Shown here: positions 20,852 through 63,024 of the stretch, one piece after another
Layout of the letters: each line of letters begins with the position of its first letter
How positions within the stretch are numbered: position 1 is the first letter of the stretch
Origin: a virus
DNA: 64,000 nucleotides
Virus record (IMG/VR): IMGVR_UViG_3300030616_000016
Span: 70,561 to 134,560 of that record
Strand: one strand, 5' to 3'
Made by a program: the position numbers and the translations under genes
The notes under the pieces: generated by a model
What the model was told of the DNA's origin: nothing
Database searches by the model: none
What the model saw: only the letters and a program-made list of their open reading frames with translations

Positions 20852-21036
20852 CTGGTTTTGATTTATATCCCATACTCCTTTAAAGAGTGTAAGATAAAAC
20901 TTTTATTATATCATAAATGTGTGTAATATCAACCTTTATGTTTCAAAAAACGGGTACTTACTCTACTTCGATTAAAAAAAGAAACGGGTACTTACTCTAC
21001 TGATAAAAAAGAACTTATGCACACAAAAAACAAGAT

Positions 21037-21195
21037 TCACTTCTTTTCGTCACCACAAATAGTACATCTGTGACCTGAGGATGTTTTGTTGTGGACGCGC
21101 TGAAACTTTCCGTATCTCTTGTCCTGAAAGATAGCGCCGGCTTTATTCATCTTGCCGTTTGCAATATGACCTTCACAAGTACAAGTTTTTATCAT
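21037..21195 (-). CDS. Small zinc-ribbon protein (52 aa), not in supplied ORF track
   Basis: Hand translation MIKTCTCEGHIANGKMNKAGAIFQDKRYGKFQRVHNKTSSGHRCTICGDEKK. CxC...CxxC. Isolated in a 600-bp otherwise non-coding region. Confidence 0.4.
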   Translation of the reverse strand: MIKTCTCEGHIANGKMNKAGAIFQDKRYGKFQRVHNKTSSGHRCTICGDEKK

Positions 21196-21458
21196 GATGT
21201 GCTCCAAATTGGTAAAAGATAGAGACCATCTAAAGTAATATTCTATTCAAAGAGTATTAAAGTAGATGGTCTCATGATTTGATGCGATGGAAATTAATTC
21301 CAATCTCATCAATGAATGAAAGATAGCCCAGAGCGATTAACGCTATTTTCGTGCTATCAATTCATATATAATATTATCTGAAATTAATATTAGTGCATAG
21401 TCGCTTCTCCGTCAGAATTTAGATTTCTGGAATTGTTATTCTTGAATGTTATTTGAAA

Positions 21459-21872
21459 TTATCTGGTGTCAATTTTGCTACTCTCTCCTGTTTCTATGCA
21501 ATAATGGACTGTTGTTTCATGACCTGTCATTACTATCATATGATTTCCGCACATATTTATTACATTAGTACTTTCTAAATCATATACATTAAATACCTTT
21601 TGCAGTTCTTTGTCTTTGAATATGAAGACAAGATCCATATCGAACGCACTAAACTGTGTGTTAGTATCTGATACATTTATTATGTAGTCGAAATCTATCT
21701 TTTTATTGATGGATTCTTCAAGATATTCTTGATAATTTTCATCAATATCCTGAGGGTCTTCTACTCCATATACTTCTGATATTTCTTCTTCTGTCAAGAC
21801 TTCCTTGATTGTTTTGCCTTCGATTTCATCAATGTTTCTATACATTGAATTTCCTTTCTGAGAGAGTGACAT
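21459..21872 (-). CDS. Hypothetical acidic protein; its ATG lies inside the IS right end
   Basis: The start codon is the ATG within the IS terminal sequence GGGGTAATGTCAC. Confidence 0.5.
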   Translation of the reverse strand: MSLSQKGNSMYRNIDEIEGKTIKEVLTEEEISEVYGVEDPQDIDENYQEYLEESINKKIDFDYIINVSDTNTQFSAFDMDLVFIFKDKELQKVFNVYDLESTNVINMCGNHMIVMTGHETTVHYCIETGESSKIDTR

Positions 21873-23167
21873 TACCCCACGCCTAAAGGCGGGGGCTTCC
21901 TAATTCATCGAAAATTGCGTTCCATACTGGCTACGTCTTACATCTTCTCCAAAGGCTTTAGGTTCCCCTTGCCCAGGGGTACAAAATGCAAAATTCAAAA
22001 TATTACTAGATGCAAGGGCATCTCTATCGTGTTTGGCACCACAAGTGCAAGTCCAATATCTGTCACTTAGCTTAAGATTATTATTTATAGCGCCGCACTG
22101 GTTACACATCTTGCTGGATGGTTCAAATCTTCCTATAGTCAAAACATGCTTTCCATACCAACCTGCCTTATACTCAAGAAAGGTACGAAAAGTATACCAT
22201 CCAACATCAGAGATAGCCTTGGCCAAACAATGATTCTTCACCATTCCAGAAACGTTTAAATCCTCAAGACACACTGCTTGGTTCTCGTCAATGAGCCTTT
22301 TGGACAATTTATGCAAAAAATCTTTACGTTGATTAGAAATCTTCTCATGTATCAACGCTACCTTCCTACGAGCCTTGTTTCTATTTGAAGAACCTTTCTT
22401 CTTCTTTGATAATTGTTTTTGCTTTCTTGCCAATCTTCTTTCAAGTTTCTTTAGGTATCTTGGATTATCTATTTTCTCGCCTGTTGATAGTGTTGCAAAA
22501 TGTTTTAATCCAACGTCAACACCTACACTATTATCTCGTTCAGGATTACATTTGATAGGTAATTCTTCTCCATTGTCAACCAAAATAGAAGCAAAGTATT
22601 TCCCAGAAGGAGCCATGAATATAGTTACAGTTTTAATATTGCCTTCAAATTGTCTATGGAATTTGCATTTGATGCCATCACGGAATTTCATTACATATAG
22701 CCTATTATTATCAAAATCCACATTACTTCCTTGTGGAAATTGACAAGATTGCTTTTTGAATTTCTTCTTAAATTGAGGATATCTTGCCTGTTTCTTAAAA
22801 AACCGCCGGAAAGCATTGTCAAGGTTTCTAAAGGCCATTTGCAAAGATTGACTATTAACTTCCTTCAGCCAACCATGCTCAGATTTCATATGTTTCAATT
22901 GCTTTATCAAATCAAAACAGGAAGGAGATTTCCCCGTTTTTTGATAAGACTCTGTTTTCTTTTGGAGTCCCAAATTGTATATGAACCGTACACAACCAAA
23001 ATGCTTCACAAGAAGCTCCTGTTGTTTTTTGTTGGGGTATATTTTGTATTTATATGCTCGTATCATTATATTTATAGTATAGCACAGGTTTCTGTAAATG
23101 TCAAGAGAAAAACGCATTCTTATATCCCCATGGCTAAAGCCAGGGGTCTTACGAATGCACCTTGATA
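21866..23167 (-). mobile_element. IS200/IS605-family insertion sequence, TnpB-only (IS1341-like), with subterminal hairpin ends
   Basis: Left end (near 23167) TATCAAGGTGCATTCGTAAGACCCCTGGCTTTAGCCATGGGG and right end (near 21866) GCCCCCGCCTTTAGGCGTGGGGTAATGTCAC. Both carry GC-rich hairpins with TTTA loops. The same ends recur at 33634-33883 and 62731-62781. Confidence 0.8.
21900..23117 (-). CDS. tnpB: TnpB (OrfB) RNA-guided nuclease of IS200/IS605 family
   Basis: 405 aa. RuvC-like NQAVCLEDLNVSGMVKN (RuvC-II E), zinc finger CNQCG...CTCG, RuvC-III DRDALASSNILNFA. Confidence 0.85.
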   Translation of the reverse strand: MRFSLDIYRNLCYTINIMIRAYKYKIYPNKKQQELLVKHFGCVRFIYNLGLQKKTESYQKTGKSPSCFDLIKQLKHMKSEHGWLKEVNSQSLQMAFRNLDNAFRRFFKKQARYPQFKKKFKKQSCQFPQGSNVDFDNNRLYVMKFRDGIKCKFHRQFEGNIKTVTIFMAPSGKYFASILVDNGEELPIKCNPERDNSVGVDVGLKHFATLSTGEKIDNPRYLKKLERRLARKQKQLSKKKKGSSNRNKARRKVALIHEKISNQRKDFLHKLSKRLIDENQAVCLEDLNVSGMVKNHCLAKAISDVGWYTFRTFLEYKAGWYGKHVLTIGRFEPSSKMCNQCGAINNNLKLSDRYWTCTCGAKHDRDALASSNILNFAFCTPGQGEPKAFGEDVRRSQYGTQFSMN

Positions 23168-23335
23168 AAAGAGCAGGAGGAAGGTATCCTCTTCCCCCTG
23201 CCAGGTTTCATTATCAAAAGCTCCAGCTGCTTTCAATTATCAGTTGAACGCTGGAATTCAATGAAATGTTGCATTTATGTTGTCTACGGCGCTATAGCCA
23301 ATTTTTAGATCTAAGTACCTGCGACCTGCCATTAG

Positions 23336-23398
23336 TCCAAGGACACATAAGGAATAAAATGGAGTGTCCTGAGGGACTTGAACCCTCAACTCAGGCAT
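23336..23398 (-). other. tRNA-like 3' fragment (T-arm + 7-nt acceptor + discriminator + CCA) embedded in a hairpin
   Basis: - strand reads GAGGG-TTCAAGT-CCCTC AGGACAC T CCA. The complementary GTGTCCT lies 17 nt further on. No 5' half could be found by eye. Confidence 0.25.
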
Positions 23399-23520
23399 AG
23401 TTAATATTGGCGTTCGAGAAGACAACGCAACAAATGCTGAGCTTTCAGGGAATAGTCTGAATTTAGCGTGCTTTCATATTATCACCAGCTTTCGCCGCGT
23501 ATGCCAGTTCCGCCATCTTC

Positions 23521-23565
23521 CCATATAGTGGGAAGAGCAGGGTTCGAACCTGCACGGTGAAGGAA
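23521..23565 (-). other. Second tRNA-like T-arm motif next to an 8-bp hairpin
   Basis: GCAGG-TTCGAAC-CCTGC on the - strand. Neighbouring hairpin TCTTCCCA-tatag-TGGGAAGA. No full cloverleaf could be built by eye. Confidence 0.2.
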
Positions 23566-23608
23566 AGTACTTATTTCAGCTTAACCTTAAGCTTCAGCTT
23601 GCCCTGTA

Positions 23609-24346
23609 TTATCCGAAAATGAAGTTACAGATGTCCTTGCCGATTTCTTTGCGTTCAACAGACGTGTTGTTTGCTTCTTCTCGTGCAAACTTGACTGCTC
23701 TCATAAGAACAGCAATTTTGTCAAGCATTTCTTTCTTACGAGTTGCAGAAATACATGTACTGAGCTTTGTAGTAGTCCAGTAACCGATAATCTCATCGCT
23801 GACTACAAGCTGAGTCTGTGCAGGATGCTTTTCAGTAGCAGCATAAAGAACGATAGGTTTCTCAACCTTACGTGTTTTATGTGTCTGACGCGCGCCTGAT
23901 TTGAACATTCCGGAATCTTCATCACGAGCCCATGTTTCTGCTGGATCCAGTTCAGGAAGTTTCTCGACATATGTTTTAATATCGTTCAGCTGTTTTTCGA
24001 GGTACAGCAAGAATGTGGGAGGGGCGTCTTTTACAATTACTGTGTCGCCAACCTTAATATCTGCTTTTGCAATGGTATTGCCAAAGTCTTTAGTTGCAGT
24101 AACATCAAACAGATCTGCGAGAGATTCCGCTACTTCGTTAATTACATTGTTCAGATTTTCTTGTACCTTTACTGATTCTTCTGGAAAGTTCTCACCTTCT
24201 TCGTCTTTAGGCTCATATACTTTATGAAGGCCATTGAATATTTGTGGTGCATCTGACAAACGATGAGCCTGAGTAATGATAGAATTATGGCGGGATTTTT
24301 CGCCCTTCTCAACTGCAATAATCTGATTAAGTTTAACTTCAGACAT
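23609..24346 (-). CDS. Hypothetical protein, probably highly expressed (strong SD, elevated GC)
   Basis: Preceded by AAGGAGGTAACAA-ATG. Composition is richer in G+C than its neighbours. Confidence 0.55.
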   Translation of the reverse strand: MSEVKLNQIIAVEKGEKSRHNSIITQAHRLSDAPQIFNGLHKVYEPKDEEGENFPEESVKVQENLNNVINEVAESLADLFDVTATKDFGNTIAKADIKVGDTVIVKDAPPTFLLYLEKQLNDIKTYVEKLPELDPAETWARDEDSGMFKSGARQTHKTRKVEKPIVLYAATEKHPAQTQLVVSDEIIGYWTTTKLSTCISATRKKEMLDKIAVLMRAVKFAREEANNTSVERKEIGKDICNFIFG

Positions 24347-24371
24347 TTGTTACCTCCTTCTGTAAGATTTA

Positions 24372-25121
24372 TTATTCAATTATTTCTTTTATTTCTTTTA
24401 TGATACTTTCTTTTGATTTAATTTTTGGTTTTGACTCATGCAATATATTATTAGTACTTTCTTGTATCATATAATCTTCAACTTGGATAGATTTTAATGT
24501 GTCTTTATACAAGTCATCGATTGTTATATCTGAAATATCATTTACACTATCAGAATATGTTGATATCATGTTATTAAATTTTGATTTAAGCTCTACTTGT
24601 TTAGACTTTGCCCTCAGAGAAATGAGCTTAGAATCATATTCATTACATTTCTTTTCATATTCTTTTATCTTATTTTCCCAGCTAATCAGAATTTTTCTTA
24701 AAGAGCTTAGTGTTTCTTTTTTAAGCTTAACTTCTTCTTTCATTTTCTTTAGAACAAGTGACCTAGAATGAATCGTTTCTAGTTCTTTTAGGTTTCGCTC
24801 TACATTTGATTCTTTTAGATTTTTCTTTATGTTACTTGTAACTTCTTGTATATTTTGTTCAAGTCCATAAACTTCTTCTTCCAGAAACTTTATATCTATT
24901 TTTAACTCTATTGCCTGTGATTTACTTACTTTCAAATTACTTTTCAGGTCATCTATAACGACCTCGATTCTATCAATTTTTACATCTGTAGGAATTGATT
25001 TTTCTATCTTCTTAACAGTAGTTTTCTGTGCTGTTTTGACATAGCTTTTAACTCTGCTGTATCCAATAAATACGATTGCTAATATTGTTATTATGGCTAC
25101 GACAACAAGTTTTTTAATCAT
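24372..25121 (-). CDS. Membrane-anchored coiled-coil protein
   Basis: N-terminal TM MIKKLVVVAIITILAIVFIGY followed by a K/E-rich heptad-like sequence. Confidence 0.55.
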   Translation of the reverse strand: MIKKLVVVAIITILAIVFIGYSRVKSYVKTAQKTTVKKIEKSIPTDVKIDRIEVVIDDLKSNLKVSKSQAIELKIDIKFLEEEVYGLEQNIQEVTSNIKKNLKESNVERNLKELETIHSRSLVLKKMKEEVKLKKETLSSLRKILISWENKIKEYEKKCNEYDSKLISLRAKSKQVELKSKFNNMISTYSDSVNDISDITIDDLYKDTLKSIQVEDYMIQESTNNILHESKPKIKSKESIIKEIKEIIE

Positions 25122-26298
25122 TCAATTTCTCCTCTGATTTTGTTGATTTTTGTAGATTATATTGCATTATGTTTTTATCAAATTCTCTAATCTGTGTCTT
25201 CATTTCTTCTGATTCTTTTATAAGTTTGCTATATTTATGTTTGATAATAGCTTTAGAATGTAATAAGCCAATATGTTCAATAAGTTTATTAAATTTGTAA
25301 GCGAATCTAGTAGCTTTTGCTGGAATTTCTGTCAATGCTTCTACTTCTTGATCAGTTAGAGTTGAAGTTTTTAATTTATCAACTCTTGATTTTAATTCAT
25401 TAAGTTTACTTTGTGGTAATTTCAACTTATTTAATTGGTATTTGAAATCATCTTTGAGGAGATCTGCGAACTTTCCTTCTTTTGCTTCAAGTATATTATC
25501 AAAGAATCCTGTACCTTTCTTAGGTTCTTCTTCTATATATTTATCAAATCTAGTTACGGGTTCTTCCGGAGCACTCGCAAGTTCTTTCAGATACTCTGAA
25601 GGCTTAGGTAATGTTTTAGGTTCTTCTGTTGTTATTTTCTGTTGTAATGATCTTATCCACTCAGCACGTCCATCAAACTTGATGCTGTTTAAAGAAATAT
25701 GGTTATAATAATATTCAATAAGACAATCTGTTACATTTTTTAATATTTGTTCTTTTGGCATTTGATATATACAAGTCTTAAGACATTTTTTACTAATACT
25801 TTCCAAAACATTTTCTTTAATGTTTGGATATTCTGCTTTAATGTATTCTTTTATTAATGGAAGTCTTCTTTCAATAAGTTCATTATTTCTAAGATTATTC
25901 ATCATTAATAATATTACGATTGTTAAGCAAGTTCCAAAAATATATGGATTTATTTTGGTCTCAACTTTTGCAGCATCTCCATATAAGCTATGCCATATTA
26001 CAATAAGTTTTCCTGCTTGGATTATTGAATATACAATTAATGGGATAAATAATATGTATCCTAATGCCTCATATGCACTCATATATGGAAGTGTATTTAT
26101 ATTCATTATTGGCATTGGCTCCTTGGTTTGTGGAACATGGACATTGCTAAGTATTGATATAAGAATAAGTACAAACGAGATTATTAGTGCACAAAATAAT
26201 GACTTACTGGTTTGTATGATTTCAGATAAAAGTATTATCAATGCAAGTAATGGTAATCCAATACAAATGATTATTATAATGTATATAAGCACTACCAT
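25114..26298 (-). CDS. Polytopic membrane protein with C-terminal coiled-coil region
   Basis: Several hydrophobic segments in the N-terminal 130 aa, then a K/E-rich region. Confidence 0.55.
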   Translation of the reverse strand: MVVLIYIIIIICIGLPLLALIILLSEIIQTSKSLFCALIISFVLILISILSNVHVPQTKEPMPIMNINTLPYMSAYEALGYILFIPLIVYSIIQAGKLIVIWHSLYGDAAKVETKINPYIFGTCLTIVILLMMNNLRNNELIERRLPLIKEYIKAEYPNIKENVLESISKKCLKTCIYQMPKEQILKNVTDCLIEYYYNHISLNSIKFDGRAEWIRSLQQKITTEEPKTLPKPSEYLKELASAPEEPVTRFDKYIEEEPKKGTGFFDNILEAKEGKFADLLKDDFKYQLNKLKLPQSKLNELKSRVDKLKTSTLTDQEVEALTEIPAKATRFAYKFNKLIEHIGLLHSKAIIKHKYSKLIKESEEMKTQIREFDKNIMQYNLQKSTKSEEKLND

Positions 26299-26300
26299 AA

Positions 26301-27305
26301 TTATCTCATTAAATATAGATTGCGTAGTTCATCTCTATCATAAAACACATTACGGATTTCTTGTCTAATATTATAGTCTTGAAATATTCTATCATAAAAA
26401 CTAGTAGTATCTCCACCAAGAAATTCTATTGCATCATTTATTGGTTGAGTTGTATTATGGTCTGGAGTAATTCCAATTCCTTCTTTCTCGACTCCATATA
26501 TATCATATATAATTCCTGCTGTGTAATTGAATCCATCGCCTCTATAAAACTTATATGCTTGTACGGCTCTAAAAGCACCAAATGTTTTAGAGCCAAATAT
26601 TGTAGCTTCTGAATAGTATTTCATTGCTGAAACAAATATTTCTGCGAATTGAAATGTACAAGCACTCGTAAGTATACACATATTATTTTTATGAAGCCAT
26701 GTATTTTCTGTTTGCACAGACATATCTGCAAAATCACTAAACGCAAATGCTGTATTATTAATTGCTGCAACTAATTCATTAGAATAAGTTTTGTGAGTAA
26801 ATCCAGCAAGCAGTTTTATGTATTCGCCTAATCCGCCATTATTACAATATCTAAGATCGAGAATTAAAGAATTGCATTCGAATTCATACATGTAATGGTT
26901 GACATTAAGCATAACAGTTTCTGCCATTCCAGCAGACATTTTATCTACAGATATATATAATATATCTGGTTCAATTTTATATATTTTTAATGTTCCTGAT
27001 GCTTCATTATCTGATATGGCTGCTTCCATTTCTTCGCTGTTTATATACCTTGTATATAAATCTGTTTCAGAACGGAGTCTATTTATATATGATTCTAAAG
27101 TATCTGAAGTTAAAGGTGGTTGAACGTTTCCATAAATATAGCCTTGTGATAATACCGAATATGCTTCTTGTAGATATTCTTCATCTACGTTTGTAATTTG
27201 ATTTTCTGTATTTGGATTGCTACTATTTCCTCCTCCTCCACAGCCATTACAAAATATAATTATGATACATAATATGAACAAATTAATTTTGATATTTTTT
27301 ATCAA
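26301..27305 (-). CDS. Lipoprotein, S41 (C-terminal processing peptidase)-like domain
   Basis: Signal and lipobox LFILCIIIIFCNGCGGGG. CILTSACTFQFAEIFVSAMKYYSEATIFGSKTFGAFRAVQ aligns with the S41 LVNxxSASASEIFAGALQD...GxxTFGKG region but with a non-canonical Ser motif. Confidence 0.45.
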   Translation of the reverse strand: MIKNIKINLFILCIIIIFCNGCGGGGNSSNPNTENQITNVDEEYLQEAYSVLSQGYIYGNVQPPLTSDTLESYINRLRSETDLYTRYINSEEMEAAISDNEASGTLKIYKIEPDILYISVDKMSAGMAETVMLNVNHYMYEFECNSLILDLRYCNNGGLGEYIKLLAGFTHKTYSNELVAAINNTAFAFSDFADMSVQTENTWLHKNNMCILTSACTFQFAEIFVSAMKYYSEATIFGSKTFGAFRAVQAYKFYRGDGFNYTAGIIYDIYGVEKEGIGITPDHNTTQPINDAIEFLGGDTTSFYDRIFQDYNIRQEIRNVFYDRDELRNLYLMR

Positions 27306-27428
27306 GACTACCTCTTTCTGTTTAATAATGGTTGTAATGAATAGGAAAGTCTCTGGTAAGGCAAAAGGATGAAGAGCACGAGGGCTCTTTGGGGGAAGTC
27401 GAAAATTCTCACCAGAGACGGGATATAT

Positions 27429-28220
27429 TTAGAAATCAGTTGATTTTGCGGTTCTCATACCGCGAGCCATCATTTCTTTCACAAAGTCTTCTCCAAGACT
27501 TTCGAAGGTCGCTACATTTGAAGTTGTATCTTCAATTAATACAAACTTCTTAATATTCTCATCGCCGAAGTTATCAGCAATGTCTCTTACTGTATTTGCA
27601 ACACAGTGTGACAGAGCTTCTCCAGTTATGAGAATATCGTCTGCTTCCAGTAGGCTATCAAGAAGATTGCCATTAAGTCTTGTAGTAGGGTCAGACGGGT
27701 CTTCTACATCGGCTTTTACTGCTGAGTAGTGTTCTGTAAAAGGATTAGACCCTTTAGTAACATAGTCAATCATAGCAAACTGATTTTCCCACTCAGTTAT
27801 TGCTTCGAACACATTAGCATCGATTGAATGTCCTTGCGAACCAATAAGACAATGTGGCCGCCAGATGCAGAGAACATATCTGCCATTGTCTTCAAGTGTT
27901 TTTGTATAATCTGAAGCTTTCTGTTGAAGAGCTGGGTTATAGGAATGCCAGACACCATTTTTTACATCATCATGGGATATTACTGTAAATGGGTTTGGAT
28001 GTTTACCATCTTTATCAACCCAGAATATAGGATGTGCAATATGAATGGTTCTGTGAGAATCCATTGTAATATGGATATCATCTAATCCGTCTTTCATTCT
28101 GTTGACCATTTCTGCAAGACGTTTCATATCCTCATCTGCTCTAGGAACAACTAGGGCTCCTTTTGGATTACAGAAGTCATATTGAGGATCAATAGCAAGA
28201 AGATGAGTTTTCTTGTTCAT
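27429..28220 (-). CDS. Isochorismatase-family hydrolase, nicotinamidase (PncA)-like
   Basis: LLAIDPQYDFCNPKGALVV (LLVIDMQNDF-type), IHITMDSH, RPHCLIGSQG (catalytic Cys region). Confidence 0.7.
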   Translation of the reverse strand: MNKKTHLLAIDPQYDFCNPKGALVVPRADEDMKRLAEMVNRMKDGLDDIHITMDSHRTIHIAHPIFWVDKDGKHPNPFTVISHDDVKNGVWHSYNPALQQKASDYTKTLEDNGRYVLCIWRPHCLIGSQGHSIDANVFEAITEWENQFAMIDYVTKGSNPFTEHYSAVKADVEDPSDPTTRLNGNLLDSLLEADDILITGEALSHCVANTVRDIADNFGDENIKKFVLIEDTTSNVATFESLGEDFVKEMMARGMRTAKSTDF

Positions 28221-28239
28221 AATTGCTGACCTTTCTTAG

Positions 28240-29895
28240 TTATTTTTTAATACTGATAGAGAACATTTCTTTATCCTCTGTAAAGTATACACTGGTACCA
28301 TCAGTGTATAGTGGCATTGATGAGTCTATCGGCGGATTAGTAATAATGCGTTTTTGATTATCTTTAGAGATCTCAATCTTTTGATCGCTAAATACATCAA
28401 TGCAAACTCCATTATTAAGAACAATGAAATTGATATTATCAACATCGCGCTCTTCTTTGTCTAGCAGAATACCTTTATTTTCTTTGCTGCATAGTTTGAA
28501 TCGGAATCTATAATATTTACCAGATTCTTCTGCTATGCATACTAGAATTCCTCTGCTATGTTTTGCATTGATTATTCTAAGTCCATGGAGTTCCTCAATA
28601 GGACCTAGAAAACTACCAGAATCTTCTAATGGCGCATATGCCCAACATTTGTCTAGGAAGTTGCTAATTACTACTCCACTAAACATTTGATTCATAGTAC
28701 CAAGATTTTGGGATGGATTCGAGCATGCCGCGCTCTTATTCCCCATATTTTTTGCATATACCTCATATACTGAGGCGCCGTTTCTGCAAAATATACTACC
28801 ATTGTATATCATGGCTTTGTCTGCGGCAAATTTACCTGGTATATCCGTTTCTATTTCTACACAGCCATTATCAATTATGCCTAACACAGGGTCAGGAGAT
28901 AGATTGCATAGAAATGCCTTTTTATTGGATATATCCTTAAATATGGATTTACCACAGTATATTGCCTTATCCGTAAATGTATAGAAAATACCATTTAGGA
29001 ATTGTATTGATTTAATCGGCTCATTGTACTTATACATTGATTTAATGTCAAAATTTGCTGTGCTTCTTATAGTCTTTTGAACCATAGCTATATTAATTGT
29101 AGCGTCAGGTTTAGGTGGAGCGCTGCGTTTATTCTCAATGAATATTGACTTAAACCACTCCATATGAGCTTTAGGAATAACTGAGAAGTCTTGACATACG
29201 GATGGAATGGTAACCTTACTATCAAATACGGATATACCATCATCCATTCGCTTAGTAAATTCTCTTGGTTTATAGTCTGGGTGTTTACCCTTATAAGGAT
29301 GGATACCAACATAAAGCTGAAATGCTATTACTGCAAACGAGAACCAATCGCTTAGTTCTGTGAACTTTTTGGCTAAGCGGTCTCTTATTGAATCCATAAT
29401 AGCATTAGCTGGAAATGACTTTGTCTGATAACTGTCAACGTCAATAAAGTAAGGTACTTTATGACCTTTGTCTATCAGAAAGTTCATTTCATTCATATCT
29501 ACTATCAGGCATTGTTTAGAATGAATGTGCTCGACCGTGTCTTGTATATTGCGCACAATTTCTAATACTTGATTAGGAGATATATTATTATCTTTTCTGT
29601 ACTGCTTAGTAAAGAGCTTGCATAGAGCACTTGTCTCTTTAATATACTTCATTGTATATCCGATGACATTGCTTGTCTTTTTATCGCAAACAATATCTTC
29701 CGGTTTGATAACATTGCCGGCTGTTATATAGCCAAGCTCTTCAATCTTTCTTAATGGTATCATATGCTTGATATCATTATAAATCTTGAAGGCAATATTG
29801 TCTTTTTTATATACAGAACCTTGACCACCAGATGCAATAAAATCATTGTCTTTCAGGTCAAATGAAGCCTTTGTTCTATTTACAATGACTCTCAT
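28240..29895 (-). CDS. Ser/Thr protein kinase-like domain protein with large C-terminal domain
   Basis: Gly-rich loop SGGQGSVYKK with IAFKIY (VAIK Lys), catalytic-loop-like LIVDMNEMNFLI, DFG-like IDVDS. C-terminal ~280 aa unassigned. Confidence 0.65.
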   Translation of the reverse strand: MRVIVNRTKASFDLKDNDFIASGGQGSVYKKDNIAFKIYNDIKHMIPLRKIEELGYITAGNVIKPEDIVCDKKTSNVIGYTMKYIKETSALCKLFTKQYRKDNNISPNQVLEIVRNIQDTVEHIHSKQCLIVDMNEMNFLIDKGHKVPYFIDVDSYQTKSFPANAIMDSIRDRLAKKFTELSDWFSFAVIAFQLYVGIHPYKGKHPDYKPREFTKRMDDGISVFDSKVTIPSVCQDFSVIPKAHMEWFKSIFIENKRSAPPKPDATINIAMVQKTIRSTANFDIKSMYKYNEPIKSIQFLNGIFYTFTDKAIYCGKSIFKDISNKKAFLCNLSPDPVLGIIDNGCVEIETDIPGKFAADKAMIYNGSIFCRNGASVYEVYAKNMGNKSAACSNPSQNLGTMNQMFSGVVISNFLDKCWAYAPLEDSGSFLGPIEELHGLRIINAKHSRGILVCIAEESGKYYRFRFKLCSKENKGILLDKEERDVDNINFIVLNNGVCIDVFSDQKIEISKDNQKRIITNPPIDSSMPLYTDGTSVYFTEDKEMFSISIKK

Positions 29896-30731
29896 GGCTT
29901 ATCCTTAAGCAGTGTAGCACATGCTATATCATCAAAGTGCTTATTGTTTATTTTGGAATCCATGATGCGTATTTTCTTCATTCTTCTTTTTACAAACTCT
30001 CCTTTGAAGGTTTTATATACAGTCATTCGTATAGCGTTATCAAGCACACTTGTATTTTCAAAAGAGCTTATACCATCAGTGAACAGGCTTATGCTCATTC
30101 CTTCTGCCATTGGCGCACTAGACATTATGTATGGCTCGAACATGGGGATTGTAGAGCTCTTAAAGTCTTCGTCTGGGTTATATGACAATACTGTTTTTTC
30201 TGGATTGCCCAATATATCCATAGTATTCATATAGTCTTTAATCTTTTCATCTTCCATGCGATATGCAAGATAGTATGGCATGTTAGATGTATATGATATT
30301 TCTTCAATACGAATCCATGGATTTGGGTCATTCGCTCTATCAAAACCATCATTAAAGACAACTACTCCATCTCCCCATACTGCTATGCCAAATCCCTCAT
30401 TATTGGCTATTACTACCATAAGCGTGGCATAGAATGTCTGGATGTCAAGACAAAGAGCTATTGCTACTTTTGATAGCGCTCCCAACACTTTATTTTCAAA
30501 TGAACAAAGAGCAGTTGATAATGTCTTGTGTCCAAACATAACTATTGAGCTTCTTAATGCTTGTTCTGCAGCAATTCCAAGTATTTTTGCACCAAGGTCT
30601 GTGTTTTGTGCAGAAGAACAGCCGTCACAGACGATACCATAGGAATAACCATAGATATCGCCTGTGATAGCATAATCTTCACACATATCATGACTGGCAC
30701 CAATTTCTACAAAACTATCTTTCTGTATCAT
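29892..30731 (-). CDS. PP2C-family (PPM) Ser/Thr phosphatase
   Basis: GIVCDGCSSAQNTDLGAK (PP2C metal-binding region F-G-V-x-DGHGG-like) and FTDGIS (DG motif). Confidence 0.6.
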   Translation of the reverse strand: MIQKDSFVEIGASHDMCEDYAITGDIYGYSYGIVCDGCSSAQNTDLGAKILGIAAEQALRSSIVMFGHKTLSTALCSFENKVLGALSKVAIALCLDIQTFYATLMVVIANNEGFGIAVWGDGVVVFNDGFDRANDPNPWIRIEEISYTSNMPYYLAYRMEDEKIKDYMNTMDILGNPEKTVLSYNPDEDFKSSTIPMFEPYIMSSAPMAEGMSISLFTDGISSFENTSVLDNAIRMTVYKTFKGEFVKRRMKKIRIMDSKINNKHFDDIACATLLKDKP

Positions 30732-30747
30732 TGGTACTCCCAGTCAT

Positions 30748-31497
30748 TTAGAAGTTAAGAATTGAAGATGCCGAGCCGGATCCAAGAGACTGTGATTGTG
30801 AGGATATGCTTTGACTCACAAATTCAGCCAGCTTTGCAAGCTTGGATGGAGTAGCTTCTCCGACAGATACGTATTTATCAAGGTTTGCATTATCCTTGAA
30901 TGTAGTCAAGAAATTCTTGACTGCAGGATCTTTATCAATCCCGATAAGAACCGTAATAATTGATTCGAGGCTTTCTTCTCTTGTGATATCATCTACTAAC
31001 GTAGCAACTTGTACTGGCGCATTATTTGATTGATTATCAGCGCCATCTGTAATGATAAATACAATTGCATTTGTTAGGAGATCTACTTTATCATACATCT
31101 GCTTGCTATACTGATGTGTTGCTTCGATGCCTTCATATGTTGCATCAAATAATGCAGTTGTACCGCCTGTACGGATGATATTAGAGTATTCATCATCACT
31201 AATATCACTTAGGAGGCGGAAACCATGCATTTCGTTCAGATTAGCATTGAATGTAGTGAAGCGAACCATTAAGTTTTCTGCACGTGGAGACTTTTTGCAT
31301 GATTCGATTACAGTTTTCAGCATATCCTCAATATCATCTTTGTATGGAGACACTGAAGAAGATACGTCGATAATAATTGAAACGAGTGTATATTCAGAAG
31401 CACCTAGTTCATCAAGCTTTACAGCACTGAATCTGAAGTTTGATGCAGTCTGCATACTGGTTATGTTTGCAAGATCTTTATCCATTAATCTTGGCAT
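30748..31497 (-). CDS. von Willebrand factor A (vWA) domain protein, TerY-like
   Basis: MIDAS motif VSIIIDVSSSVSP (D-x-S-x-S), downstream T and D residues consistent with vWA. Confidence 0.7.
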   Translation of the reverse strand: MPRLMDKDLANITSMQTASNFRFSAVKLDELGASEYTLVSIIIDVSSSVSPYKDDIEDMLKTVIESCKKSPRAENLMVRFTTFNANLNEMHGFRLLSDISDDEYSNIIRTGGTTALFDATYEGIEATHQYSKQMYDKVDLLTNAIVFIITDGADNQSNNAPVQVATLVDDITREESLESIITVLIGIDKDPAVKNFLTTFKDNANLDKYVSVGEATPSKLAKLAEFVSQSISSQSQSLGSGSASSILNF

Positions 31498-31499
31498 GG

Positions 31500-32486
31500 T
31501 TATTTCCTTTCTTTGTTAAGCCTGTTTCCTTCTCCTAAATGCATAAGGGGAAGCGGTTTAGGGCTATCACCATTTAGGAAGTATACCTTGGTAGCCGGGT
31601 CTTTTGTAATTGTACCTAGTGCTTTAAGTGCTTCAAGCTGGATATATGCAGGATTATTTGCAATAGCATCGTTAACTTTCTGAATTTCATATGCTTTTGC
31701 GTCTGCAAGGATCTTCTGTTTTTCTGCTGAAAGCATTGCGGCGTCTTTATCTGCCTGAGCAGTTTTAACTTTCTTCTGCTGTTCAGTCTCAAACCTGCGC
31801 AACTCTGCTTTCTCACGTTCAGCTTCCTGCTCGCGTTTCTTCTTACTCTCAACACCTTGCTGGATTGTGTTGGGAAGTTGAATATTTCTAATGAGAACAG
31901 CTTCAACATCAAGGCCCTTTGGTGCAACGTATTCTTTAATTGAAGTAAGAAGATTTGCCTGCATCTTTTGCTGAATTTCTTCCCTAAAGAATGACTCTGC
32001 AGTTTTCACACTTTTACCTTGTTCTCGCAATAAGCTTCGGAACTTGGGTAACATGTGTACTTCCATAAGGTCTTTAGGATTACCGGTTTCTTGCAGAATG
32101 TCTGGAGCCATAGACTTGATAATTCGATACTGACAGCTTACATCGAATGTCGTAACAAGCTGGTCCATACTTGGGATGGGAACCTGGCTCATTGTAATAC
32201 TTTTCTGACGACAATCGAATTCTTCCCAATCATACAAAGGATTGGTAAGGTGAATGCCTGCTTCATAGGGCTGATCAACGACTTTACCAAAGAATGTAGC
32301 TACTCCAATATGTCCTGGAGGTATTGAGATAACACATGAAGCGATGAGAGTAATAGCGCCGACGGCTCCTACCAGTAGACCGCCAAGAATATAAGGACGC
32401 CTTTTTTCTTCTGATTTAGCCATAAGACCATATACAAACACCAACAAACCGATTAATGCAATTATAATACCAAGAGCAAGTATCAT
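31500..32486 (-). CDS. SPFH/band-7 (stomatin/prohibitin/HflKC) membrane protein
   Basis: N-terminal TM, then IPPGHIGVATFFGKV and an extended E/K/A-rich coiled region typical of SPFH proteins. Confidence 0.75.
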   Translation of the reverse strand: MILALGIIIALIGLLVFVYGLMAKSEEKRRPYILGGLLVGAVGAITLIASCVISIPPGHIGVATFFGKVVDQPYEAGIHLTNPLYDWEEFDCRQKSITMSQVPIPSMDQLVTTFDVSCQYRIIKSMAPDILQETGNPKDLMEVHMLPKFRSLLREQGKSVKTAESFFREEIQQKMQANLLTSIKEYVAPKGLDVEAVLIRNIQLPNTIQQGVESKKKREQEAEREKAELRRFETEQQKKVKTAQADKDAAMLSAEKQKILADAKAYEIQKVNDAIANNPAYIQLEALKALGTITKDPATKVYFLNGDSPKPLPLMHLGEGNRLNKERK

Positions 32487-32508
32487 ATTACTACCTTTCT
32501 AAATCAAA

Positions 32509-32646
32509 TTACTTTTTAGTATATATACCAATGAAACCATTCCACTGGTAATTTTTGTACTTAATACCACAAATGAATCCAAACAATAGTGTAGATAGAA
32601 CAACAAAGCCTATCATTATTAAAGTAGCTTTTGCTAATTGTTTCAT
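32509..32646 (-). CDS. Small single-TM protein (45 aa), not in supplied ORF track
   Basis: MKQLAKATLIMIGFVVLSTLLFGFICGIKYKNYQWNGFIGIYTKK, directly downstream of the SPFH gene. Confidence 0.25.
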   Translation of the reverse strand: MKQLAKATLIMIGFVVLSTLLFGFICGIKYKNYQWNGFIGIYTKK

Positions 32647-32921
32647 TCTACACCTCTATAATAAGTAAGTTTCCGTATAGCAGCCAACTCCTGGGGAAAT
32701 CGACATTAGGAAAGCATGTCGACTAACTATATGTCTCCATATAGAACAGGTGAAACGTTGGTTTCTCGATTAACTTTCACCTTTCAGCTGTCAACTTTCA
32801 AATCCTGAACTTTGAATTTTAAAGTTTGAGCTTTGAAGGGCTAAGTTTAGTTCGTATTATGAGTACGATACGTAATTCCTATTTTCTTTTCTCCCTCTTC
32901 GCTATGGAAAACTTATTGTAT

Positions 32922-33440
32922 TTATTCTATTGTAATAGTAGTCGTTGCATTGATCATTGACAGCTTACCGTCAATTTCATCTTCAATTTCGCCAAGCTCT
33001 TCCAGTTTCTTATGAACACTTGGTGCATCGACACTGATGACAAGTCCCGCACTGTCTTTGTCGAAGCTGTTGTTCATCGATTCTTCTTGCTTTACATGGC
33101 TATAAACTTGCATATATGAAGTTTTAATTGAAGGGAGAGTTTCTCTTCTCCAAATTAGCCATTCTGCAATTGTCATTTCATAATTGCCAATTTTAACAAC
33201 AGTTGCTTCATTTGCAAGCTGAATTGCCATTCTGATGTTCTTTTTGCGTTCGGCAAGATCAGTGATTGTTTGCATTGTATCTTGCACGAATTTTGCTGAT
33301 CCGCCTTCATTTTCGTATGGATCCTTAAATTTCTCATTCCTTATAGAAACATCAATAACTGCTTTAGTTTTCTTGTTAATCTTATTATTGATGAGTTTAA
33401 TTTCTGCGAGCCCTTCCGTAATAGTCATGTTTGATTCCAT
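32922..33440 (-). CDS. Hypothetical protein
   Basis: Start placed at MESNMTIT, which has GAGGAAAGG SD-like sequence upstream. Confidence 0.5.
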   Translation of the reverse strand: MESNMTITEGLAEIKLINNKINKKTKAVIDVSIRNEKFKDPYENEGGSAKFVQDTMQTITDLAERKKNIRMAIQLANEATVVKIGNYEMTIAEWLIWRRETLPSIKTSYMQVYSHVKQEESMNNSFDKDSAGLVISVDAPSVHKKLEELGEIEDEIDGKLSMINATTTITIE

Positions 33441-33633
33441 GCTGAACCTTTCCTCTCTATTAATTTGTTTTAACCAAAAATTCACCAAACAACACAACTT
33501 GCTTATTAAATGATAATTAGATAGTTACTTAGATAATCAAATTATTTGATAGATCGGTAACATATCTCAATTATGCAATTTTTTGGTAATATATGTATAT
33601 CACTGTGCCTTAAAATGAGTACCTATTATCGTT

Positions 33634-33883
33634 TATCAAGGTGCATTCGTAAGACCCCTGGCTTTAGCCATGGGGATATAAGAATGCGTTTTTCTCTTGA
33701 CATTTACAGAAATCTGTGCTATACTTTTGCTAATGATCGAAAACCAAGATCATTGGCAAAGAATTTAGATACCGCAGGGCATGCGGAAATTTACGCCTTT
33801 GGAGAAGATGTAAGACTTGTCTGCTTGAAAGCAGTCTTCAGTGAATTAGGAAGCCCCCGCCTTTAGGCGTGGGGTAATGTCAC
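33634..33883 (+). mobile_element. Miniature deletion derivative (MITE-like) of the IS200/IS605 element at 21866-23167
   Basis: Keeps the left end, the first 14 codons of tnpB (MRFSLDIYRNLCYT), then jumps to the last ~50 codons and the right-end hairpin. Near-identical at nucleotide level to the full copy. Confidence 0.75.
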
Positions 33884-33887
33884 CTGA

Positions 33888-35558
33888 TTAGTTTATAAGG
33901 CAAAACAGATACTTCTGAATTCTGTCACTGCCTGTTGCATATTCGTCTATCAGGCGATATAAGAGCTTGTCCCAGCCTTTAGATAGCATCAACTGCATTA
34001 CAGTGATGTATATCCTTGTTCCAGACCTCTTACCACTATTTGCATATATTCCATCATCAGATAGCTTACGACTGCATGCATGAGTATTTGTCTGGTGGCT
34101 GAACTTATCTAATACTATCCAGAACACTTTCCCAGACCATGCCTCAACTGTCTGTCCGTTATAAGTATGCTTTTGTGGCTTGCATTCTTTTATAAGAGCA
34201 GATGGTATATTCCCATCTTCTCCTTCTAGAAAGTGAGGAACGGGCGCCGGCCCTGATTCCTCTGCAATATTATTAAGCATAGCTTCTACTATCTGACCTG
34301 GATTCCTACGCTTTAGAGTTGCAAGAGCGTTGGTTACCACTTCTGCTGGTTTGCCATCTATCTTAGGCATTTGCTCGTCTGGTATAATATTTACTATACC
34401 TTTATTACCGTGACGATTTGTAATTTTGTCGCCACTTCTGAGAATATGAAATCTCTCGTATTCGACAATAAGTTTTGTACAAACTGTGTTTGCTACTTTT
34501 GTTCTTATCTCACTGATATTAGACAGTTTAGCTTCACGCTTGACATGACATTTAAGCGTGATTGTTTCTTCTCCATCAGAATAAGAACCAATTATCTGAT
34601 TTGGTCTTACAATGTCTCCGGCTTTGGCTTCCATCTTTAGGCTTTGTTTGCACCATCCTGGTACTACGAATGTCTGTTTCTCAGGAATGACACATGTCAT
34701 TTTTCTAGCTGCTGACTTACTCATAACAATCTGTTCTTTGTATACACCAGGCATGATTGCATGAACTGTAAGTAAGTGCTTGCCATTAAGATTGTTATCA
34801 TAATCTTCTGGAAACACCATAGGTTTATCTGGACTAACTAGCTTGCTGGAAGCCTTGAAATTAGATGCAGTGGTTCTGCGGCGATTATATTCTGGTACAA
34901 TAAGATTCTTATTGAGTATATCGCAATAAACCCGACCTCTTTTGGTGAAGCATCCAATATCGTTTATTTTGCATTCTTCAGCCATGTACATTGTGCGACC
35001 ACAATTCCCCGATGACTGACTTATACTTGTCCAATCAAGAATGCCTTCTGTATTGAATGGCATAAATTCATCCGTTCGTTCTTGAAATAGCTCTAATGAT
35101 ATTTTGGGTCCATAGTGAGTAGCTATTCCCTTTACGACATGAGATAATCTTGAAGTTTTAAGTAAATTATCGAGCTTCATTTGAGCTGTGGTAGAATCTT
35201 CTTGATGTCCGAACATAAAGAAGTCTGACAGTTGTGTAGCATATGCTTGCTTAATGAATTTAAGAAGAAGCTCGTATGGTGTTGATAAATATGTGTGATT
35301 AATATTCATACATCTGTTATTAAAGATTGGCATTGGATTAAGTGTATAGCATAATTGCCGGCTTATTCCATTTACAGAAAACATACCCTTGTTATCAATC
35401 TTAGGTATATTTAGTTTTACGACTGTTTGCATGCTCTGGGATGCCTCTTTAACAAGCATTTTTGTATGAAATAGGTCATCATATTCTTCTATATGACAGT
35501 CAACAGGCAAACAATTACATATAGGAAACAATCTTGCAAGATGAGACTTATTCATCAT
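33888..35558 (-). CDS. Multisubunit RNA polymerase beta-subunit-like protein (C-terminal half homolog)
   Basis: SGDKITNRHGNKGIVNII matches beta region GDK-x-AGRHGNKGV. AIMPGVY...QIVMSKSA resembles the beta AVMPWxGYNFEDAI region. Confidence 0.7.
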   Translation of the reverse strand: MMNKSHLARLFPICNCLPVDCHIEEYDDLFHTKMLVKEASQSMQTVVKLNIPKIDNKGMFSVNGISRQLCYTLNPMPIFNNRCMNINHTYLSTPYELLLKFIKQAYATQLSDFFMFGHQEDSTTAQMKLDNLLKTSRLSHVVKGIATHYGPKISLELFQERTDEFMPFNTEGILDWTSISQSSGNCGRTMYMAEECKINDIGCFTKRGRVYCDILNKNLIVPEYNRRRTTASNFKASSKLVSPDKPMVFPEDYDNNLNGKHLLTVHAIMPGVYKEQIVMSKSAARKMTCVIPEKQTFVVPGWCKQSLKMEAKAGDIVRPNQIIGSYSDGEETITLKCHVKREAKLSNISEIRTKVANTVCTKLIVEYERFHILRSGDKITNRHGNKGIVNIIPDEQMPKIDGKPAEVVTNALATLKRRNPGQIVEAMLNNIAEESGPAPVPHFLEGEDGNIPSALIKECKPQKHTYNGQTVEAWSGKVFWIVLDKFSHQTNTHACSRKLSDDGIYANSGKRSGTRIYITVMQLMLSKGWDKLLYRLIDEYATGSDRIQKYLFCLIN

Positions 35559-61019: not shown

Positions 61020-62240
61020 CTATGTCAATTGTTCTGGAATAAGCTCGCTTTGATTTCTCCAATTTAGAGCTTGTTCCACTGTTTTGATATTTTGTGGTAC
61101 GCATTCCATGTGCCATGTACCAATGCTTGGATTTAGCATTTTAAGATAAGGCCATTTGCCGGTCTCACCCTTCAGATCTACTACAACCAATTCATAATCT
61201 CCTTGCGTGTCCAGTGATTCAGCGCCCGTAGATTTGACAATTCGTTCTATACCTACCTTTCTTATAAACTCCCTACGGACTTCTGCATTATCAAGTTCTG
61301 CGAATTTAGCAGGGTCAATGTCATGCTCATTCGTTTCTGCTAACCACTGCGGAACTCGTACATTATTCAAATGCCACAGTCCCCAACCGTCCGCAAATTT
61401 TACAGACATTCCTCCATCTTTATGCAGATGACTGGCTTTCCAGTTTATTTCGATTGGATTCCGACTTACAATAGCAACATTTTTATACAGTGCGCTTGAG
61501 GATATTTTTCTGTTGTAATTTAGAAATATATCATATTTTTCTTTCTCATATTTAACGCCTATATATTTCCCAAACTCGTAAACTCCGCACCAATCATTCC
61601 ACCATATGTTTATATACTGCTCGGTTTTTAATTTGTTGGCACTAAGCCTGTCACGAAGGCTGTCACGAAGGCTGTCACGAAGGCTGGCATCAAGACTGTT
61701 ACGAAGACCGGCACTAAGACTATCATAAAAACTATTATGAAGACTGTCATAAAGACTGTTACGAATATTGTCATGAAGGCTGTTACGAAGACTTTTATGA
61801 AGACTGGCATAAAGACTGTCATAAAGACTGGCATAAAGTTTGTCATAAAGATTGTCATGGAGACTGTTACGAAGACTTTTACGAAGACTTTTACGAAGAC
61901 TGGCATCAAGACTGTAATAAAGACTGTCATAAAGACTGGTATAAAGTTTGTCATAAAGATTGTCATGGAGACTGTTACGAAGACTTTTATGAAGATTGTC
62001 ATGAAGATTGTTATGAAGATTGTCACTAAGCAAATGTTCTGTTAGTGCTGTTGTTAATGGGCTATCACAGATTATAATTTTAATGGCATTATCTGCACCA
62101 GTCATTTTTACAATAGGCAATACTGCGTGTTTAATTTCTTCATCACTGTATTGCGCCGATATGAGGTTTAAACAGCGATTTATATGTCTTGGTATCATTT
62201 TTTCTTGTTCTTTTGTTAAACTCATAATTTCCTCTTTCAT
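61020..62240 (-). CDS. Repeat protein: ~35 tandem xSLx tetrapeptides (12-bp DNA period) plus conserved ~220-aa C-terminal domain
   Basis: SLRNSLHDNLYDKLYTSLYDSLYYSLDASLRKSLRKSL... The DNA at 61620-62030 is tandem 12-mers (GACTGTCACGAAGGCTGTCACGAAGG...). A paralogous C-terminus restarts at 63926. Confidence 0.6.
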   Translation of the reverse strand: MKEEIMSLTKEQEKMIPRHINRCLNLISAQYSDEEIKHAVLPIVKMTGADNAIKIIICDSPLTTALTEHLLSDNLHNNLHDNLHKSLRNSLHDNLYDKLYTSLYDSLYYSLDASLRKSLRKSLRNSLHDNLYDKLYASLYDSLYASLHKSLRNSLHDNIRNSLYDSLHNSFYDSLSAGLRNSLDASLRDSLRDSLRDRLSANKLKTEQYINIWWNDWCGVYEFGKYIGVKYEKEKYDIFLNYNRKISSSALYKNVAIVSRNPIEINWKASHLHKDGGMSVKFADGWGLWHLNNVRVPQWLAETNEHDIDPAKFAELDNAEVRREFIRKVGIERIVKSTGAESLDTQGDYELVVVDLKGETGKWPYLKMLNPSIGTWHMECVPQNIKTVEQALNWRNQSELIPEQLT

Positions 62241-62512: not shown

Positions 62513-62730
62513 TCTACGTCCTCCTCAATTATTTTTTGAAGACTTTTGAAATCTGACTTTAAGTCAAAAATTGCTTTTATCATCCATCCTATCGATGTTA
62601 GTATAAATGTGATAAAGCAATAGAAAACTATATCCATTTGGTATTCTCCTGTATGTGTATCCGGCCATTTATTAGGCCAAAATGGCCTGATTGATAATTA
62701 AGTTTGTTCGATAGGCGCCGCTTAACCGCT

Positions 62731-62781
62731 TATCAAGGTGCATTCGTAAGACCCCTGGCTTTAGGCGTGGGGTAATGTCAC
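62731..62781 (+). mobile_element. 51-bp minimal derivative of the IS200/IS605 element (left-end 5' arm fused to right-end 3' arm)
   Basis: TATCAAGGTGCATTCGTAAGACCCCTGGCTTTAGGCGTGGGGTAATGTCAC. The junction lies in the CTTTAG shared by both hairpin loops. It supplies the last 7 codons and stop of ORF 62761-63024. Confidence 0.7.
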
Positions 62782-63024
62782 TTCTAAATCTAGTTCATAT
62801 TTAATTGTTTTTACTAGATCATTAATTAATTCTGGACGTGTAGCCATAGTTTCTACATTCCAATTTCTGTTGATGTATTGTGGTTTACATCTTAAATTAA
62901 AATTTCCTCCAATATCAGAGATAGATTCAATTATAGCTTTGATTCTTTCAGGAGTTAAACCAGCATTATGATAGTCTTCAAAACTCAAATGGATTATTGT
63001 TGTTGTATAATAATTAAGTTTCAT
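62761..63024 (-). CDS. Hypothetical protein, C-terminus provided by the mini-IS
   Basis: Ends EVTLPHA-stop, encoded by GTGACATTACCCCACGCCTAA of the element. Confidence 0.4.
   Translation of the reverse strand: MKLNYYTTTIIHLSFEDYHNAGLTPERIKAIIESISDIGGNFNLRCKPQYINRNWNVETMATRPELINDLVKTIKYELDLEVTLPHA

Follow-up and report, generated by a model that had tools for sequence, protein, structure and literature searches.

Introduction

Palindrome-associated transposable elements (PATEs) are protein-less derivatives of IS200/IS605 transposons that have been described in Haloquadratum (PMC3119063) and in Geobacillus stearothermophilus (PMC10055086). According to Meers et al. 2023, PATEs "often encode omegaRNAs" that require TnpB in trans (PMC10055086). 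In characterised IS200/IS605 systems, TnpA excises the element precisely and leaves the transposon-adjacent motif (TAM) joined to the right flank; with a guide RNA derived from that flank, TnpB then cuts the empty site, and recombination restores the element (PMC10055086). A PATE has also been described in a virus: HRTV-DL1, an archaeal tailed virus, carries a 489-bp PATE that is 99% shared with the host genome, no TnpB has been reported on the virus, and no other region of the viral genome is transcribed as highly as one end of the PATE (PMC10544981). Among structured RNAs, RAGATH-18 is the core of the IS607-type TnpB reRNA and has been reported only with IS607 TnpB, with AGGAG or GAGGG as the TAM (Ren et al. 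2024, PMC11061315).

Here we analyze a 247-bp element located at positions 33637-33883 (+ strand) of a 64,000-nt stretch of viral DNA (hereafter the window), which is in all likelihood an element of the PATE type whose omegaRNA module is intact. Like PATEs, it is gene-less, its subterminal-hairpin ends match those of a tnpB-bearing element in the same genome, the omegaRNA module is retained, and the insertion lies beside a fixed tetranucleotide without target duplication. Unlike the PATEs of cellular chromosomes, it resides on a large phage-like contig and keeps what appears to be the tnpB promoter; it also differs from PATEs in having an extra 5' hairpin in common with a distant bacterial copy, an interior that is mosaic relative to that of its partner, and only one copy seen. 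With the PATE of HRTV-DL1 it shares the condition of a protein-less IS200/IS605-type element within a viral genome, whereas HRTV-DL1 infects an archaeal host and here the virus itself carries the TnpB partner, with no known host copy of the element. The first-pass annotation regarded such a locus as rare, a view that is superseded by the omegaRNA-encoding PATEs (PMC10055086) and the transcribed viral PATE (PMC10544981) already in the literature. The concept is therefore published, and the points specific to this element are its TnpB-encoding phage carrier, its promoter, its 5' hairpin, its mosaic history and its predicted target in the tail of an essential gene.

Results

Genomic context of the element

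The window comes from a metagenomic contig of 231,593 bp (ENA ERZ27252234, k141_1275754) with a GC content of ~36%, ORFs that lie nearly all on the minus strand, and no tRNAs. The PHROG and Pfam matches of this ~232-kb contig indicate a large phage; they include an RNA polymerase beta subunit, several helicases, a DNA polymerase III alpha subunit and RuvC, and a UvsX/RecA-like recombinase gene is found at 1983-3107 (PHROG). Directly adjoining the recombinase gene is a reverse-transcriptase-like ORF (878-2026, -; Pfam RVT_1 in the gene call of the contig, PHROG "polymerase/reverse transcriptase"). Beyond the right end of the short element comes an ORF (33888-35558, -; stop codon at 33888-33890) with matches to Pfam Rpb2_6 (E 2.4e-13) and to PHROG 3295 "RNA polymerase beta subunit" (E 2e-14). 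With the 508-aa ORF that precedes it, this ORF has the appearance of a split phage beta subunit, and the label "RNAP beta-like" is thus a fair one.

In the nearest related phage contig, L037 (5672-6487), the RNAP beta-like protein is 66% identical, and the sequence is collinear with both sides of 20852-33887. This block of ~13 kb, which carries both the short element and a full-length copy, is missing from L037; its accessory genes include Band_7, PP2C, kinase-like, S41 peptidase and DUF7873 genes, and the short element lies exactly at one of its edges.

The resident full-length element and its TnpB

A TnpB-only IS200/IS605 element occupies 21866-23164 on the minus strand, 10 kb from the short element, as identified by Pfam, a structure match and the omegaRNA covariance model R1 described below. 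Its tnpB gene (21900-23069, -) encodes 388 aa, corresponds exactly to the called protein P0001, and contains the Pfam domains HTH_OrfB_IS605, OrfB_IS605 and Cas12f1-like_TNB. The closest solved structure is that of ISDra2 TnpB (E 2e-67), and the D-E-D triad of the RuvC domain is intact, with GVDVG, LEDL and HDRD aligned. By these alignments, the resident TnpB is intact in its catalytic residues and ISDra2-like. We also considered a composite transposon bracketed by the full-length and short copies and rejected it: the two are inverted with their left ends inward, an arrangement that the strand-specific IS200/IS605 mechanism cannot use.

Boundaries and ends of the short element

The region 33600-33920 was compared with the window by local blastn. 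Two significant matches to the full-length element were obtained, which rules out low-complexity similarity: 33629-33725 against 23172-23076 on the left (95/97 identical, 98%, E 9e-44) and 33770-33883 against 21981-21866 on the right (96/116 identical, 83%, 2 gaps, E 2e-27). A global MAFFT alignment of the two copies misplaced the right end, and homology was taken from the local search. The right 114 nt of the short element correspond to the 3' end of tnpB plus the right end of the full-length element, and over the 42 nt that immediately precede the guide (33842-33883) the blastn alignment with the resident copy shows no difference. For the 44 nt at 33726-33769, the full-length element, which lies on the opposite strand, has no counterpart.

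Boundaries were set by comparing three copies in the window (the short and full-length elements and a 48-bp mini copy) with the relatives L002 and L003. The interval originally proposed, 33634-33883, proved right at its right end and needed correction at its start, which is 33637, as 33634 takes in 3 nt of a TTAT motif. This TTAT (33633-33636, +), the putative target motif and TAM, stands immediately 5' of the left end, and all three window copies are preceded by it (23165-23168 on the minus strand for the full-length copy and 62730-62733 for the mini copy), while L002 and L003 have TTAC instead ahead of the common CAAG... start. Compared with TTGAT, the TAM of ISDra2, the motif here is TTAT (TTAC in relatives), and the comparison with ISDra2 covered TnpB and the layout. 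All three window copies end in ...TAATGTCAC, have unrelated flanks and lack target-site duplications; the flanks of the short element, CGTTTAT and CTGATTAG, likewise contain no duplication. The insertion thus has the form expected of a PATE or MITE, with a fixed 5' motif and neither inverted terminal repeats nor target-site duplication. The right end at 33883 and the stop codon of the RNAP beta-like gene are separated by CTGA, exactly the 4 nt first reported.

The left end (33637-33696, +), 98% identical to that of the full-length element, includes an imperfect subterminal hairpin with a bulged T at one site. This hairpin (33655-33675, CCCCTGGCTTTAGCCATGGGG; DNA fold -11.9 kcal/mol, z -4.5) is presumed to be the TnpA recognition site. 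The right end (33854-33883, +), delimited by blastn and DNA folding, consists of a second hairpin (33854-33874, CCCCCGCCTTTAGGCGTGGGG; DNA fold z -3.5) and the terminal TAATGTCAC, and is at once the transposon right end and the 3' end of the scaffold. Both hairpins are identical to those of the full-length element, in agreement with the initial view that the two hairpin ends had been kept. Five matches to the hairpin pattern CCCCNGSCTTTAGSCNTGGGG lie in the window (0 expected), two in the full-length copy, two in the short copy and one in the mini copy; each of these hairpins carries the bulged T and folds well as single-stranded DNA. The sole ORF of the short element (33573-33866, including a 60-codon MRFSL frame) has no Pfam match and is a read-through of the leader, a hairpin and the frame-shifted tnpB 3' remnant; the element is protein-less.

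The mini copy (62734-62781, +), recognised by blastn, sequence and the hairpin pattern, is a single hybrid hairpin in which the left-end foot and 5' hairpin arm are joined, within the shared CTTTAG loop, to the 3' arm and terminus of the right end. No omegaRNA module is present, and model R1 has no match there. ORF 62761-63024 (-) takes its last 7 codons and its stop from the mini copy. The neighbouring ORF 61020-62240 was examined as a possible second TnpB and rejected, being unrelated to TnpB. It contains a long run of imperfect short tandem repeats (61620-62030, -), with units like GTCATAAAGACT and GTTACGAAGACT, which encodes the ...LHDNL.. / SLRNSL.. region of a 406-aa protein without TnpB similarity.

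A complete omegaRNA module

To describe the RNA module, we used a covariance model of 94 positions (R1) built from 13 tnpB-linked copies, with all tnpB-less copies excluded. It produces exactly two matches in the window. One is the module of the full-length element (21896-21982, -; 87.5 bits), and the other lies in the short element at 33769-33853 (+), where a score of 84.6 bits (E 7e-20) is reached over model positions 1-94 of 94. The proposal that the short element keeps the omegaRNA scaffold part is borne out: a complete scaffold is recovered, at full coverage, by a model built without the short copy. The assignment of the scaffold core is further supported by covariation and by a sub-threshold Rfam match to RAGATH-18. 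In order, the module comprises a 5-bp stem-loop SL1 (33772-33786), a linker, the invariant 22-mer core GCCTTTGGAGAAGATGTAAGAC (33795-33816), a variable hairpin SL2, the motif TGAATTAGGAAG, the right-end hairpin and a short terminal motif. In the short element it runs to 33883, and the flank beyond differs between copies, so the guide corresponds to flanking DNA. The scaffold of the ISDra2 omegaRNA falls in a length range that includes the 114 nt seen here. The general layout is also that of the ISDra2 TnpB-omegaRNA (reRNA) complex (PDB 8H1J, 8EXA), in which the RNA overlaps the 3' end of tnpB, extends as far as the right end and takes its guide from the flank.

Multiple alignment of 18 copies with RNAalifold revealed changes on both sides in 4 of the 5 SL1 pairs, and the base of SL2 covaries too. 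Between the short and resident copies, all four substitutions in SL1 are compensatory, converting CCCCT/AGGGG into CCGCA/TGCGG (C-G to G-C and T-A to A-T). In the P2 helix (GARG/CYTC), the variable R/Y pair alternates between A-T and G-C, with one or the other in 12 of 13 copies linked to tnpB and a G-T wobble in L002. The short copy forms every pair of the covarying model, and its P2 pairs better than that of the full-length copy. SL2 of the short element differs in sequence from the resident one with the hairpin kept, and the 22-nt core is identical between the two.

The interior of the short element has a different affinity from its ends. From SL1 to the AGGAA motif, it is identical to the resident copy at 64/87 positions (~74%) and to L003 at 69/87; across SL1 and the linker, the values are 21/26 with the tnpB-less copy L020 and 17/26 with the resident copy. 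Thus, the earlier description of the locus as a derivative of the same IS holds in that the two are relatives with ends at least 98% identical, and fails if a simple deletion is meant, as the interior (~74% identical) is slightly nearer to other lineages. Ends this similar around an interior closer to L003 and L020 suggest that the short element belongs to a tnpB-less lineage whose ends have been exchanged or homogenised with those of the resident element. With an interior only ~74% identical, compatibility with the resident TnpB is assumed.

Rfam at gathering thresholds returned no match in the whole window. In a permissive Rfam scan, RAGATH-18 (RF03064) scored 21.2 bits, below its gathering threshold of 44.9, which leaves the module outside that family; the resemblance was seen at 33796-33852 (+) and at 21896-21982 (-). 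As in RAGATH-18, a variable hairpin is closed by the motif CCU..GGAG ... UGAA..AGGAA, a stem-loop lies on its 5' side, and the segment on its 3' side leads to the guide. Unlike RAGATH-18, the module here is associated with IS200/IS605-type hairpin ends and a TTAT TAM, and its 3' flank is ~30 nt compared with 64 nt. It may be that this IS200/IS605 lineage and the RAGATH-18 guide RNAs share a kink-turn-like core, as their common motifs would suggest.

A candidate promoter and an additional 5' hairpin

The short element was initially thought to retain 14 N-terminal and ~50 C-terminal codons of tnpB, and neither reading survives closer examination. The supposed N-terminal stretch, MRFSLDIYRNLCYT, lies upstream of the real tnpB start: P0001 and all relatives begin at MIRAYKYK, 16 codons downstream, the Pfam HTH domain starts at residue 18 of the long tnpB ORF, and in L002 the extension upstream of the tnpB start is closed by an in-frame TAG. 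What the stretch does carry is a sigma-70-like site (33697-33725, +), TTGACA-17 nt-TATACT with a TG extension, which matches the consensus at 11 of 12 positions and is aimed into the omegaRNA module. The position of this TTGACA-17-TATACT site upstream of tnpB is conserved in the full-length copy, L002, L003 and L005. Because the site falls within MRFSLDIYRNLCYT, the short element appears to keep a candidate promoter from the tnpB leader, not N-terminal codons. At the other end, the retained part of tnpB amounts to 79 nt (~26 codons) plus 36 nt past the stop, in a frame broken by indels.

Immediately downstream of the promoter-like site is a hairpin that is absent from the full-length element. 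This hairpin, HP0 (33726-33760, +), has a 13-bp stem and the loop GAAAACCAAG, with a fold z of -5.2; the RNA fold of 33726-33883 (158 nt) as a whole gives z -4.0. A transcript starting ~7 nt past the -10 box would lack part of the 5' arm of HP0. In L017, a tnpB-less copy from a Synergistaceae bin, a hairpin occupies the HP0 position, agreeing with HP0 in its outer stem (TTTGC...GCAAA) and in its loop GAAAACCAAG and departing from it in the inner stem. A hairpin of this type at the same position in L017 indicates that the middle piece is a shared module rather than filler. The 10-mer of the HP0 loop (33739-33748) equals the E-N-Q codons beside the catalytic Glu of tnpB in L002-L005; it is located at 948-957 in L002, 4453-4462 in L003, 1991-2000 in L004, 2389-2398 in L005 and 253-262 in L017, and the resident full-length copy has one mismatch to it. 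The loop may be a tnpB fragment turned hairpin, or may provide a functional RNA contact.

Relatives and searches for further copies

The TnpBs of L002-L005 are 87-73% identical to the resident TnpB, and these loci have the same omegaRNA module. Searching with the invariant 22-mer GCCTTTGGAGARGATGTAAGAC yielded loci L006-L019 sharing the module, among them Synergistaceae and Promethearchaeota bins whose TnpBs are only 25-46% identical; model R1, which extends from SL1 to the AGGAA motif, finds further copies as well. Besides the short element, five module copies are tnpB-less (L014, L016, L017, L019 and L020). Two of the five have a promoter-like site upstream, extended -10-like in L017 and TGATATAAT, identified by eye, in L019. 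L020 (5430-5516, -) has no recognisable left end, and its SL1 again contains compensatory changes. On an unrelated 38-kb phage contig (IMGVR_UViG_3300037504_000175), the full element L003 (L021/L003) and the tnpB-less L020 occur together, the same pairing as in the window.

Across ~83 kb of the contig (the window plus ~10 kb on each side), the short form was seen once. Exact scans of viral contigs with the left and right ends, an exact right-end scan of metagenome contigs, and megablast of the short and full regions against a phage collection returned no match; when phages and plasmids were searched with the 247 bp by distant blastn, just 35-nt hairpin-like matches came up. The HP0 pattern had 15 matches in viral contigs, which were judged to be chance, none of the 15 having an adjoining omegaRNA module. 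A tblastn search with IS608 TnpA as query gave no TnpA match in the window or the fetched loci. Close relatives of the RNAP beta-like gene were not found in viral contigs, and the neighbouring 168-aa gene is found on this contig only. No empty site was recovered: the fetched RNAP beta-like homologues have 52-66% protein identity and unrelated intergenic DNA. For mobility of the PATE kind, then, these scans gave no second short copy, and related phages gave no empty site; the three different derivative forms at three TTAT sites would bear on mobility indirectly.

Predicted guide and target

The predicted guide region of the short element is CTGATTAGTTTATAAGGCAA (33884-33903, +), placed by analogy with characterised TnpB systems, in which the guide adjoins the right end (PMC10055086). 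It is antisense to the stop codon and the last 4-5 codons of the RNAP beta-like gene, and the earlier proposal of the flank CTGATTAGTTTATAAGG as guide had placed it correctly. The suggested target search with the flank after the right end uncovered no TTAT-flanked copy elsewhere in the window; at up to 3 mismatches, the closest match is at 25209, with 2 mismatches and preceded by CTTC, and the others are at chance frequency. In the present genome, GTCAC instead of TTAT directly precedes the guide-matching DNA, so the phage would not cut itself. The predicted guide of the full-length element, TCTCTCAGAAAGGAAATTCA (21846-21865, -), covers the ribosome-binding site of the next gene, the start ATG of which follows immediately. 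With one at a ribosome-binding site and the other at a stop codon, both predicted guides overlap functional gene boundaries.

Discussion

On balance, we lean towards the short element being a PATE/MITE-type guide-RNA locus that the resident TnpB could use in trans, a reading based on its scaffold, promoter-like site and ends. We infer transcription, trans-loading, cleavage, homing and mobilisation of the element along the following lines. The left end would be recognised by TnpA, and the inner promoter would be the one that normally drives tnpB. From this candidate promoter, a transcript would comprise ~150 nt of scaffold and read on into the flank, giving the guide CTGATTAGTTTATAAG... TnpB produced by the full-length copy would bind this RNA in trans, and the complex would cut only DNA in which TTAT is directly followed by CTGATTAGTTTATAAG... 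Such a target would be the empty site in copies of the phage genome that lost or never had the insertion, and the cut would fall within the last codons of the RNAP beta-like gene. Recombination repair off an insertion-bearing copy, presumably by the UvsX/RecA-like recombinase of the phage, would then restore or spread the element, whereas movement to new TTAT sites would need a host-supplied Y1 TnpA.

Another explanation is that the locus is an inert relic, a decaying remnant of internal deletions or recombination between IS copies that is neutral in its spacer and whose module survives by chance or recency. The single copy, with no twin in any collection searched, would be expected of a relic, as would the lack of a TnpA found within reach, and the 48-bp single-hairpin scrap of the same family shows that degenerate derivatives accumulate in this window. 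However, the divergence of the short element is non-random: all four SL1 substitutions are compensatory, P2 pairing is better than in the resident copy, and neither the 22-nt core nor the final 42 nt has changed. Its R1 score is on par with those of tnpB-linked copies, and the module from SL1 to the right end recurs without tnpB at five other loci, of which two have a promoter-like site upstream. We consider decay unlikely.

It is also conceivable that the element is a mobilisable MITE and nothing more, its ends selected as a TnpA substrate and the RNA module idle, the 114 nt being needed as DNA for right-end recognition. The pattern of kept ends is also expected of a purely TnpA-selected MITE: the hairpin ends and the TTAT/...TCAC junctions have stayed intact, with at least 98% identity to the resident copy of autonomous type, as selection by a shared transposase would give. 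IS608 TnpA is not known to require more than a hairpin and a short flank at each end. If TnpA needs so little beyond the end hairpins, the conserved SL1, core, SL2 and promoter are left unexplained; the covariation of SL1 and P2, moreover, is a signature of RNA (or single-strand) structure outside the TnpA hairpins, and selection by a transposase cannot account for L020, where the RNA module is kept and a left end is lacking altogether. This possibility appears improbable to us. Equally poorly placed is a regulatory by-product, in which a plus-strand transcript acts as antisense RNA to the 3' end of the RNAP beta-like mRNA or the minus-strand hairpins act as a terminator or stabiliser: the promoter is aimed at the convergent RNAP gene with predicted read-through overlapping its last codons, and strong hairpins lie 4 nt past the stop codon on the gene's strand, but neither strand has a terminator-like site (hairpin plus T-run), the conserved module occurs in unrelated contexts of other genomes and is not specific to this neighbourhood, and any such regulation would be secondary to an omegaRNA locus, not an alternative to it.

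A bolder extension of the trans-acting guide-RNA reading, which we regard as doubtful, is a multi-guide TnpB system in which one tnpB is served by separate, independently promoted guide-RNA-only loci of their own tnpB-less lineage, accompanying full elements in mutually unrelated phages (this contig and the L003/L020 contig). Loss of the RNA-only locus would expose the end of the essential RNAP gene to cutting, making the locus an addiction or gene-drive module between co-infecting genomes, and the arrangement would be intermediate between a transposon guide and a CRISPR-like trans-guide array.

Whatever its activity, the locus marks the minimal scaffold of this omegaRNA lineage as the 114 nt from SL1 to the right end, plus the TTAT motif. 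If inactive, it amounts to an ordinary transposon remnant lying between genes. If active, it would be a transposon-maintenance nuclease system in a virus, in which insertion-free genomes are cut in the tail of an essential gene, in a homing-endonuclease-like manner during mixed infections. It would then also represent a compact natural case of a TnpB nuclease using a guide from a separate, promoter-equipped RNA-only locus, a guide modularity of the kind thought to predate CRISPR arrays.
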